Below, in pieces: positions 2,218-36,543 of a stretch of 64,000 bases of DNA. The first letter of the stretch is position 1. Every line of letters starts with the position of its first letter. The DNA is from Escherichia coli (GTDB lineage Bacteria; Pseudomonadota; Gammaproteobacteria; Enterobacterales; Enterobacteriaceae). The stretch is from assembly GCF_022846255.1 (NCBI RefSeq), contig NZ_AP025682.1; one strand, 5' to 3'. The position numbers and the translations under genes are program-made. The notes under the pieces are model-generated. The model was not told the origin of the DNA. It saw only the letters and a list, made by a program, of their open reading frames with translations, and ran no database searches.

Positions 2218-2640
2218 ATGCGTAATATTCAACAGGTTTTAGAGCGCTGGGGTGGCTGGGCAGCGAGTGAAGGTGGTAGCGTCTACTTTCCTCCTGTTGC
2301 AGCCGGGTTTAAGAATCTGCTACCCGCGACGCAGTCTGGAAGGCTGAAATGCAGTGACAATGACGGTCTTATCATCAACTCCGCTATGAGCTGCCTGAAG
2401 AAAAAAGATCCGTATCTGTGCACGCTCCTTGAGTGGCATTACGTCCAGGCCATGCCCGTGCGGGCGATGGGTGAGAAGCTCGGCGTATCTCACACCCACG
2501 TTCTGAAGAGGCTTCAGGCGGCAGAGGGATTTATTGACGGTTGCTTAGCCATGCTGGATGTGGTGCTCGAAATGGATCAGTCGGTTCAGTCAAAGCCTCA
2601 GGCGATCAGGACTTTGCGTAGGAGCTGCTCGGCGGCATAA
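2218..2640 (+). CDS. Late-gene antitermination protein Q (QuuD-like small Q family)
   Basis: 140 aa; N-terminus MRNIQQVLERWGGWAA and C-terminal LKRLQAAEGFIDGCLAMLDVVLEMD resemble my recollection of E. coli prophage QuuD-type Q; sits immediately upstream of the lysis cassette; SD present. Confidence 0.7.
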   Translation: MRNIQQVLERWGGWAASEGGSVYFPPVAAGFKNLLPATQSGRLKCSDNDGLIINSAMSCLKKKDPYLCTLLEWHYVQAMPVRAMGEKLGVSHTHVLKRLQAAEGFIDGCLAMLDVVLEMDQSVQSKPQAIRTLRRSCSAA

Positions 2641-2671: not shown

Positions 2672-3013
2672 ATGGCTCTGATCAGCGTTCGCAACAGATT
2701 TGAAAGCTTCATGGAACAGAGGTACCCAGACCTGTCGTTGCAGGTCAAAGGTAATATTAGCGCATCAATGAAGGCTCAACTTGGCATCAGGATTGAACGA
2801 GAATTGTACAGTGAAGATGTTACTTACTGTGATTCAGCAGTTCAGTTGATGTGGACACTCTTTCAGGCAGGTGTTCTGGCCGAACGAAGAGCTACCAGCG
2901 TTACGCTTCCTGCGCTGAAGGCAAAGCCGGATAGCTTATACGATGCGGGTTATAACGAAGGTATTCAGGACTGTCGTAAACATCTGACGGCATCAGGCAT
3001 CAAGGTAAGATAA
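2672..3013 (+). CDS. Hypothetical protein, 113 aa, between Q and the lysis genes
   Basis: ORF starts 31 nt after Q stop and is followed by a hairpin terminator; no recognisable motif. Confidence 0.4.
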   Translation: MALISVRNRFESFMEQRYPDLSLQVKGNISASMKAQLGIRIERELYSEDVTYCDSAVQLMWTLFQAGVLAERRATSVTLPALKAKPDSLYDAGYNEGIQDCRKHLTASGIKVR

Positions 3014-3109: not shown

Positions 3110-3334
3110 CCCATTCTGGGGAAAAGTTAATAAAACAGGGCTTTCGCTGCGAAAAAACGCTATGCAGTTTTTGCCCTTTTTTATGCACCTTTTATTCACT
3201 CGAATTTCGTCATTCTGGACCACTTAAGTTGATTAAATAGGCCTTTCATCGCAAATCTATTGCGAGCGGGGATCGTGTGGTTCCTATAACGTACATTATG
3301 TTAAATCACCTTCTTTTTTAACAAATTTAACAAG
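3110..3334 (+). promoter_or_regulatory. Putative Q-dependent late promoter / qut region (inferred by position only)
   Basis: Non-coding, AT-rich stretch between the Q-operon terminator and a strong terminator just upstream of the holin, analogous to lambda pR'-tR'. No confident -35/-10 assignment. Confidence 0.3.
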
Positions 3335-3357
3335 GTTCGCTATGGCGAACTTTTTTT
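3335..3357 (+). terminator. Rho-independent terminator, candidate tR'-like terminator upstream of lysis genes
   Basis: Perfect hairpin GTTCGC-TATG-GCGAAC (3335-3350) followed by T7 (3351-3357). Confidence 0.55.
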
Positions 3358-3458
3358 GTATTCAGGGCCCACCGAAGGACGGCTCATAACCCAATCCTAC
3401 GGGCGTATACGCAGGGCCCGCCTTTCAACAACACCCCGTAATGGCGGAGGTGGGAAGT

Positions 3459-3800
3459 ATGAAAATGCACAATGCTCCTCATTCCTGGCCTGACTTACTG
3501 GAACTCTTACAAAGTTGGTGGCGTGGAGATACGCCGTTGGGCGCAGTGGTTATGTCAATTGTTATGGCTGGTTTGCGCATTGCCTATTTTGGCGGTGGCG
3601 GCGGCTGGAAACGAAAAACGCTTGAGATTTTGCTCTGTGGTGCTCTGACGCTGACCTTTGCATCCGCTCTTGAGTATGTTGGATGGCCTAAATCGCTTTC
3701 TGTTGCCATTGGTGGCGGCGTTGGGCTGATCGGTGTCGATGCTATTCGTGGGGCTGCAATGCGAGTAATCGGTAACAAATTTGGTAGCTCGAAGGAGTAA
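3459..3800 (+). CDS. Holin (lambda S-like) with M-K-M dual-start motif
   Basis: Hydrophobic segments and charged C-terminus; start MKMHN at 3459/3465 preceded by GGAGGTGG; the ORF track's start at 3441 is also possible. Directly upstream of endolysin. Confidence 0.7.
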   Translation: MKMHNAPHSWPDLLELLQSWWRGDTPLGAVVMSIVMAGLRIAYFGGGGGWKRKTLEILLCGALTLTFASALEYVGWPKSLSVAIGGGVGLIGVDAIRGAAMRVIGNKFGSSKE

Positions 3801-3803
3801 TTT

Positions 3804-4280
3804 ATGCAGGAACTAAATCCCCAGCGTAAAGCTTTCCTGGATATGTTGGCCTGGTCAGAAGGAACGGATAACGGGCGACAACCGACACGTAATCACGGTT
3901 ATGACGTTATCGTCGGAGGTGAGTTGTTCACTGATTACTCCGATCACCCTCGCAAACTTGTCACGCTAAACCCGAAGCTTAAATCAACAGCTGCAGGCCG
4001 GTATCAACTTCTTTCACGCTGGTGGGATGCCTACCGCAAGCAGCTTGGCCTGAAAGATTTTTCGCCAGAAAGTCAGGACGCTGTGGCGCTGCAGCAGATT
4101 AAAGAGCGTGGCGCTTTACCGATGATTGACCGTGGCGATATTCGTCAGGCAATCGACCGTTGCAGCAATATCTGGGCGTCGTTACCTGGTGCAGGTTACG
4201 GTCAGTATGAACATAAAATCGGTGACCTGATTTCCAGGTTTAAAGATGCTGGTGGGGTGGTAAATGAAGCTGACTTATAA
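3804..4280 (+). CDS. Endolysin, lambda R-like lytic transglycosylase
   Basis: 158 aa; near-identical over most of its length to lambda R as I recall it (NPQRKAFLDMLAWSEGTDNGRQPTRNHGYDVIVGGELFTDYSDHPRKLVTLNPKLKST). Confidence 0.9.
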   Translation: MQELNPQRKAFLDMLAWSEGTDNGRQPTRNHGYDVIVGGELFTDYSDHPRKLVTLNPKLKSTAAGRYQLLSRWWDAYRKQLGLKDFSPESQDAVALQQIKERGALPMIDRGDIRQAIDRCSNIWASLPGAGYGQYEHKIGDLISRFKDAGGVVNEADL

Positions 4281-4788
4281 GATTGTCATCGCGGCATTTT
4301 TCTTCTCTGTCTTTGGGGCGCTCGTCTGGTCTGCAAACCATTACCACAGCAAGTATCAGGCAGAAAAGTTGCGGGCTGATAAAGCGGAAGGTGAAGCTGA
4401 ATATCAAGGGAAAGTGATAGCTAATCAGGCATTAAACTTCAATCGTTTTAACCAGATAGCAGAAAACGCAAGCCGATTAAATTCTCTGGTCGACATCGGT
4501 CACGAGAAGACAGTCATCAAATACCGTGAGGTTCTGCTCCGTGAAAAGAACTGTGATTTCCCTGTTCCTGTTGATATTGCTGTCGGGTTGCTCAACTACG
4601 CGAACCGTTTACGTGCCAGCGCATTGCACGCCGATTCCGGGGACATTGACTCAGCCGGTGATCGTGCCACTACCACCAGAACGTTGACATATTGCCAGGC
4701 TGTTCTGTGGATTAACCCACTGTTGGCAGCCATCGAGAAGGCGAATAACCAGTTGGCTGGTGTCCGACAAATAGAACAGTCCCGGTAA
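4264..4788 (+). CDS. i-spanin (Rz-like)
   Basis: N-terminal signal-anchor helix then a long charged helical region; overlaps endolysin stop; contains an embedded +1-frame lipoprotein ORF. Confidence 0.65.
   Translation: MKLTYKIVIAAFFFSVFGALVWSANHYHSKYQAEKLRADKAEGEAEYQGKVIANQALNFNRFNQIAENASRLNSLVDIGHEKTVIKYREVLLREKNCDFPVPVDIAVGLLNYANRLRASALHADSGDIDSAGDRATTTRTLTYCQAVLWINPLLAAIEKANNQLAGVRQIEQSR
4541..4687 (+). CDS. o-spanin (Rz1-like outer-membrane lipoprotein) embedded in the Rz frame
   Basis: Translation from GTG at 4541: VKRTVISLFLLILLSGCSTTRTVYVPAHCTPIPGTLTQPVIVPLPPER; lipobox LLSGC, Pro-rich C-terminus; not in the supplied ORF track (under 60 aa). An in-frame GTG at 4526 is an alternative start. 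Confidence 0.6.
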   Translation: MKRTVISLFLLILLSGCSTTRTVYVPAHCTPIPGTLTQPVIVPLPPER

Positions 4789-36358: not shown

Positions 36359-36543
36359 AGTGGCTCATTCGCCGACTTATGTCAGCCCCTTCGGGACGTG
36401 CTACATAAAATTCGAATGACGCACAACAAGGTGCCTGCCGTCCAACTTCTGATATCAGCGTAGCTATATCAACCATCGGGCGAAACGTCGAGTTAGGCAC
36501 CGCCTTATTCCATAACAAAGCCGGGTAATTCCCGGCTTTGTTG
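36359..36543 (+). ncRNA. glmY: Small regulatory RNA GlmY
   Basis: Begins AGTGGCTCATTC right after the sigma54/sigma70 promoter and ends at hairpin AAAGCCGGG-TAATT-CCCGGCTTT plus U-run; lies between purL and glrK. Confidence 0.75.

Follow-up and report, generated by a model that had tools for sequence, protein, structure and literature searches.

The locus described here lies within a window of 64,000 nucleotides of Escherichia coli DNA, which is the whole stretch that was analysed, with position 1 as its first letter. Near one end of this window a phage lysis cassette is found, made up of the following features.

2218..2640, plus strand: antiterminator Q gene (PF06530 Phage_antitermQ, E = 5e-42)
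3332..3362, plus strand: hairpin and T-run resembling an intrinsic terminator (tR'-like; terminator scan), about 100 nt upstream of the holin start
3459..3800, plus strand: holin gene of the lambda S family (PF05106, TIGR01594, PHROG 126, hydropathy and charge)
3804..4280, plus strand: lambda R-like endolysin, with no signal or SAR sequence (PHROG 90, E = 4e-63)
4264..4788, plus strand: Rz-like i-spanin (PHROG 214, E = 5e-59)
4526..4687, plus strand: Rz1-like o-spanin lipoprotein, inside Rz in the +1 frame (PHROG 456, E = 2e-7)

An identical locus is present in E. coli ETEC-2264, where the PGAP annotation names the Q gene 'antiterminator Q family protein' and calls the holin from the equivalent of position 3459 (WP_000781777.1). 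The terminator-like element consists of a 9-bp stem (AAGGTTCGC/GCGAACTTT) followed by TTTTGTATTC, and in phage SfV a rho-independent terminator is annotated at the equivalent place. The endolysin, which starts about 3-4 nt past the holin stop, is 89% identical to lambda R over 158 aa. The Rz1-like open reading frame (ORF) shows a weak match to PF23793 LysC and a lipobox-like LLSGC in its translation. The holin gene is therefore immediately followed by genes for a soluble endolysin and the spanins, and together with Q and the terminator these genes constitute a standard lambdoid, Q-dependent late lysis cassette in the order S-R-Rz/Rz1. Related holin copies occur in 1187 of 5426 complete E. coli genomes.

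A few further observations concern the cassette and its surroundings. The cassette is a mosaic, with a holin only 26% identical to lambda S adjoining an endolysin 89% identical to lambda R. Pfam yielded no endolysin match at E <= 0.01, despite the PHROG 90 match at 4e-63. Between Q and the late terminator lies a plus-strand ORF of 113 aa (2672-3013), a 'hypothetical protein' in RefSeq; it has no match in Pfam or NCBIfam but matches PHROGs of unknown function (37465, 343), and its residues 60-112 match a 'head closure' PHROG. At 1916-2087, between Q and a VapE-like primase/helicase gene (16-1938), YGGAACCAC is repeated seven times within 172 bp, in both orientations. The repeats resemble iterons, and a replication origin or an array of protein-binding sites may lie here. 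The GlmY sRNA is found at 36359-36506 on the plus strand (RF00128, 143.6 bits), which indicates that the window is E. coli chromosome with the prophage in roughly its first half. No tRNA genes were found in the whole window.

The holin and its family

The holin protein matches PF05106 (Phage_holin_3_1, 'lysis protein S') with E = 1e-27, scoring 96.9 bits (cutoff 23.8) across profile positions 2-99 of 99, and TIGR01594 ('phage holin, lambda family', an NCBIfam equivalog) over positions 1-106 of 107 (136.4 bits against a cutoff of 55.05); both are full-length matches above the curated cutoffs. It also matches PHROG 126, 'holin/anti-holin'. The gene is thus an equivalog-level member of the lambda S class I holin family.

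Three hydrophobic segments stand out by hydropathy, covering approximately residues 26-44, 54-73 and 78-100. Loop 1 contains the basic stretch KRK, the C-terminal tail is likewise basic and the N-terminal tail of about 25 residues is acidic, a charge distribution which, by the positive-inside rule, fits an N-out/C-in orientation. The protein has in this way the layout of a class I holin: small, with three transmembrane segments, a probable N-out/C-in topology and a charged C-tail.

The initiation region

The 5' end of the holin gene and the RNA just ahead of it contain the following elements.

3432..3452, plus strand: sdi-like RNA hairpin of 8 bp with bulged A3448 and loop AAUG at 3440-3443 (-10.8 kcal/mol)
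3446..3450, plus strand: Shine-Dalgarno (SD) sequence GGAGG (extended GGAGGU), lying entirely in the 3' arm of the hairpin
3453..3457, plus strand: purine-rich GGAAG, a candidate weak SD for the holin start, single-stranded with the hairpin closed and 7 nt before AUG3
3459..3461, plus strand: AUG1, opening the 113-aa form with a Met-Lys extension, a putative antiholin; PGAP start of WP_000781777.1
3465..3467, plus strand: AUG3, opening the 111-aa form, the putative active holin; Met kept in 80/80 IMG/VR loci

Written as RNA, positions 3432-3467 read CACCCCGU-AAUG-GCGGAGGUG-GGAAGU-AUG-AAA-AUG. An earlier, sequence-only reading of this DNA had proposed an MKMHN terminus with starts at 3459 and 3465. 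Both starts are indeed in frame, as read from the sequence and from the ORF translation: ATG at 3459-3461, AAA (Lys) at 3462-3464 and ATG at 3465-3467 share one frame that from 3459 stays open until the stop at 3798-3800. Dual-start holins have two in-frame starts a few codons apart with at least one Lys or Arg in between, and ATG-AAA-ATG at 3459-3467 is such an arrangement.

The same reading had suggested that a stem occluding the SD lies within 3441-3467. A hairpin covering the SD is found in silico, but it begins at 3432, 9 nt further 5'. Its pairs are C3432-G3452, A3433-U3451, C3434-G3450, C3435-G3449, C3436-G3447, C3437-G3446, G3438-C3445 and U3439-G3444. The SD that it sequesters would form a duplex of -10.8 to -11.3 kcal/mol with the 3' end of 16S rRNA, and GGAGG is 8 nt from AUG1 and 14 nt from AUG3. 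By analogy with lambda, where the corresponding stretch is GGGGG-UAAGAC-AUG-AAG-AUG, we infer that GGAAG at 3453-3457 may act as a weak SD for AUG3. A hairpin over the SD, as expected of dual-start holins, is supported here both in silico and comparatively (3432-3452 covers GGAGG). Rfam provided no family for the region, with one sub-threshold match to Histone3 on the minus strand that is attributable to chance.

Annotation of this 5' end varies among database records. The holin is annotated from an internal Met in the GenBank entries for phages vB_EcoM-689R2, -606R2, -611R5 and -683R1 (98.4% identical DNA); the coding sequence at 1852-2100 of L001 (ON470582.1 and sister records) is 249 nt or 82 aa long and leaves out both the dual start and the N-terminal tail.

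Comparison with lambda S and other systems

In lambda, both starts of S are used: S105, initiated at Met3, is the holin and S107, initiated at Met1, its inhibitor, in a ratio of about 2:1 that is set by an RNA stem-loop including the ribosome-binding site (PMC3369941). What makes S107 an antiholin is its additional N-terminal positive charge, which alters topology until the membrane is de-energised (PMC9636201). The window holin shares with lambda S the family (PF05106/TIGR01594), the MKM N-terminus, three transmembrane domains (TMDs) and the charge layout. A BLASTP alignment of the two proteins (26% identity) places MKM on MKM; Met1-Lys2-Met3 thus aligns residue for residue with the S107/S105 terminus, in line with the arrangement proposed earlier, and the motif is conserved in relatives. 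A short hairpin 5-6 nt before AUG1 and the order S-R-Rz/Rz1 behind Q are also common to both. In lambda the region reads AUCCCC-UUAUU-GGGGGU-AAGAC-AUG-AAG-AUG, with the G-rich SD in the 3' arm of the hairpin as in the window. The SD is the canonical GGAGG in the window and GGGGG in lambda, and the stem is 8 bp with a bulge as against 6 bp. Ahead of TMD1 the window holin has an N-tail of about 25 residues compared with about 9 in lambda S, which makes it less certain here what one Lys would do to topology.

Comparison with the RNA structure upstream of lambda S had been put forward as a check, and it is borne out in part. The SD-covering stem is present in the same arrangement, but a counterpart of the downstream, intragenic stem of lambda is not evident in the window, where 3425-3520 folds like its shuffles (z = -0.09); the lambda equivalent has z = -2.39 and a clear GCCGC/GCGGC stem. 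This second lambda stem-loop, about 10 codons into the gene, was reportedly found by Blasi et al. in 1989 to influence start choice as well.

Other phages show comparable arrangements to different degrees. The holin of the Salmonella prophages Fels-1/ST64B resembles that of the window, with 58% identity over the first 78 residues, an MKMH N-terminus and an SD-covering hairpin (UCUCCC/GGGGGA), and the Fels-1 record is already annotated 'Dual start motif'. It differs in the C-terminal third and is accompanied by another endolysin, annotated as a putative glycohydrolase. Phage 21 shares the idea, as S21 has two starts (S21-71/S21-68) whose longer product, with an extra positive charge, is the antiholin (PMC9636201); S21 is, however, a class II pinholin with two TMDs, of an unrelated family and paired with a SAR endolysin, whereas the window encodes three TMDs and a soluble endolysin of the lambda R type.

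The closest characterised relatives are the S holins of the Shigella phages SfV, SfII and SfIV, with 88-92% protein identity to the window holin; they share with this locus the hairpin with its terminal GAGGUG as well as R and Rz/Rz1. Their holins begin with MPHN and are without an in-frame dual start, unlike the MKM allele of the window. For these three phages the lack of the dual-start motif has been reported and the control of timing stated as unknown (PMC3851460).

Chance expectation within the window

Taken by itself, the window gives weak evidence, since neither the hairpin nor the motif is statistically unusual in it. An ATG followed by a Lys or Arg codon and a second ATG occurs 11 times in 128 kb (both strands of the window), and a second Met within codons 2-4 is found at 3 of 47 crude gene starts. 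The pairing probability of the holin SD, 0.88, ranks 6th among the same 47 starts, and some SD-covering hairpin is present at 18 of 46 control starts (39%), the controls being crude ORF and start calls within the window. Folding statistics depend on the segment chosen. The 43-nt context folds at -13.9 kcal/mol (z = -2.66; 3 of 200 shuffles fold equally well), a wider fold of 101 nt gives z = +0.23 and folds of 51 nt taken lineage by lineage range from z = +0.4 to -3.6. As G-rich and C-rich segments fold well even when shuffled, z-scores of minimum free energy for the larger segments are uninformative. Because pairing of the SD is common among controls, the case for the stem is made here by comparison rather than from one sequence, and it is homology to lambda S (MKM on MKM) together with conservation across relatives that raises the site above chance.

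Conservation among relatives

For close relatives we considered the 80 nearest IMG/VR loci, with 96-100% protein identity. The stretch ATGAAAATG is retained in 75 of these, across at least 4 unrelated upstream contexts; Met1 is lost in the other five, twice by ATG to ATA and three times by a 1-nt deletion. The hairpin is found in all 11 distinct close alleles, with 7-9 bp, an end in GAGGUG and energies of -8.6 to -13.2 kcal/mol. Compensatory changes are seen at three of its pairs: G:C and C:G are swapped at positions -1 and -2, just 5' of the SD, and position -3 occurs as four pair types (G:U, U:A, C:G, A:U). Positions 3 and 5 show single G:U-compatible changes only (G:C to G:U, U:A to U:G). 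These pairs were tallied by a script anchored on GAGGUG, the 5' arms being out of register in the MAFFT alignment. Similarity between lineages stops directly 5' of the stem base, and the hairpin therefore appears to travel with the gene.

A wider set comprised 12 aligned relatives, including lambda and phages of Salmonella, Yersinia, Serratia, Aeromonas and Pseudomonas. The second, holin Met is invariant in all 12, and an upstream in-frame Met is present in 10 (MKM in 5, MRM in 2, MPNM in 1, MNTM in 1), and MKM or MRM persists between genera whose proteins share 35-55% identity. Of 16 family lineages including lambda, 14 have a compact hairpin whose 3' arm holds the SD, against 18 of 46 controls (Fisher p = 0.001); this comparison draws on lineages that lack phylogenetic independence and on crude control starts.

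In-frame types are widespread in complete E. coli genomes: at identities of at least 99%, the type of the window was found in 131 genomes, that of L026 in 232 and that of L062 in 19. About 400 of 5426 genomes carry 5' ends of the SfV type, which is about as common as the in-frame types. In SfV (L002, 1461-1482) the AUG with the most favourable position relative to the SD lies out of frame, at -8 relative to the holin AUG (GAGGUGAGAGAUGACGAAAUG), and opens an ORF of 30 codons across the holin start; E. coli 165 (L095) is also of SfV type. The same out-of-frame state is seen around position 1499 of L063, L066 and L083, here with a 29-codon ORF created by a 1-nt deletion in an A-run (AUGAAAUG); this state appears to have arisen independently of the SfV type. 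A single-start state is represented by SfII, which has AUA where SfV has the out-of-frame AUG, and by the ATA variants.

Proposed mechanism

Considering these lines of evidence together, we regard it as probable (about 0.7) that 3432-3467 is the initiation region of a lambda S-type class I holin in which the choice of start sets the timing of lysis. For this allele, homology and comparative analysis support an antiholin/holin pair; that both starts are used, that the long form acts as an antiholin and that the hairpin partitions ribosomes between the starts would follow by analogy with lambda.

All the sequence elements that the lambda scheme calls for are present in the window. On the Q-antiterminated late transcript, the strong SD at 3446-3450 would be locked in the 3' arm of the hairpin at 3432-3452. 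Initiation at AUG1 (3459) would yield the 113-aa form with its extra Met-Lys, and as in lambda S107 the added charge may prevent the N-terminus and TMD1 from passing through the membrane while it is energised, making this form an antiholin. Initiation at AUG3 (3465) would yield the 111-aa active holin. With the hairpin open, GGAGG at 8 nt from AUG1 should favour the antiholin; with the hairpin closed, only GGAAG at 3453-3457 would be exposed, 7 nt from AUG3 and too near AUG1, and the holin should be favoured. The ratio of the two products, along with a damping of translation by the hairpin, would then determine when the holin triggers and the lambda-R-like endolysin is released.

A possible alternative, which we hold to have a real though minority chance of being the better account, is that the hairpin serves mainly as a general translational throttle for a lethal protein, setting the rate of holin accumulation, with the choice of AUG secondary or unregulated. 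The hairpin, with its compensatory changes, is also retained in the SfV and SfII alleles, which have one in-frame start, and so need not be a selector of starts, and dividing initiation between two AUGs cannot be all that it does; moreover, lysis timing in lambda depends on holin accumulation (PMC9636201). Against this, the corresponding stem of lambda has been reported to set the S105:S107 ratio (PMC3369941), and the geometry in the window is like that of lambda: the strong SD enclosed by the stem stands at a suitable distance from AUG1, and the weak purine tract left outside the stem at one that suits AUG3. A throttle is compatible with the dual-start explanation and does not exclude it.

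It appears rather improbable that one start alone is used in practice, be it AUG3 or the AUG1 of the PGAP annotation, with Met-Lys-Met a neutral relic that has no effect on timing. Alleles without an in-frame Met1 are common, both as SfV-type ends (about 400 of 5426 E. coli genomes) and among the IMG/VR loci (5 of 80), and in distant relatives the MPNM or MNTM extensions bring no positive charge. The antiholin form is evidently dispensable, as very close alleles do without Met1 (SfV/SfII/SfIV, the ATA variants and the 1-nt deletions). A relic is, however, difficult to reconcile with the maintenance of MKM or MRM across genera, and in 75 of 80 close loci despite upstream recombination, or with the use of both starts in lambda (PMC3369941). 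With the two AUGs 6 nt apart behind one SD, exclusive use of either is mechanistically unlikely.

There is very little to recommend a start at ATG 3441, which would give a 119-aa product (MAEVGSMKM...) with the hairpin inside the coding sequence: this ATG is in frame with 3459 with no stop between and is the start used in the mechanical ORF list, but it sits in the hairpin loop without an SD or purine-rich tract upstream, is missing from the L026, L062, L051, SW-37 and SfV lineages, lies ahead of the MKM at which the family HMM matches begin, and is passed over by PGAP in favour of 3459. Given its loop position, the lack of a purine tract and its poor conservation, it was rejected, and 3459 and 3465 are the relevant starts. 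We are confident that these are the correct ones, rather than 3441 or the internal Met from which GenBank entries for the 98%-identical phages begin the gene.

Hardly credible, finally, is the notion that the hairpin is a transcription terminator or another DNA or RNA signal apart from translation: a minus-strand terminator with a 5-bp stem was flagged by the scan at 3449..3434, but it was rejected on account of its poor T-run (TGTTGTTGAA), of terminator-like matches in the region at shuffle level (2 found, 1.3 expected) and of the absence of a convergent gene ending there, and what is conserved across the family is the overlap of the 3' arm with the SD.

Allelic states and implications

The dual start in the window is a textbook feature in a known family; it is ordinary, and its value is mostly for annotation, where the label of a lambda-type holin/antiholin dual start with an sdi-like hairpin can be given with confidence.

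Setting the window allele beside its relatives suggests a more speculative idea, namely that prophages of E. coli and Shigella switch among in-frame, out-of-frame and single starts behind one hairpin, the out-of-frame AUG acting as a decoy. Such a decoy would divert ribosomes from the holin AUG, lowering translation of the holin and delaying lysis with no antiholin protein involved. We consider this unlikely on present evidence, though not negligible. If true, a decoy start would answer the question of timing left for SfV, SfII and SfIV (PMC3851460), and the alleles would form a natural series for the evolution of lysis timing. In-frame dual-start and out-of-frame alleles are each found in hundreds of E. 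coli genomes, and the series is perhaps a modestly useful natural system for understanding how the architecture of initiation tunes the time of lysis.
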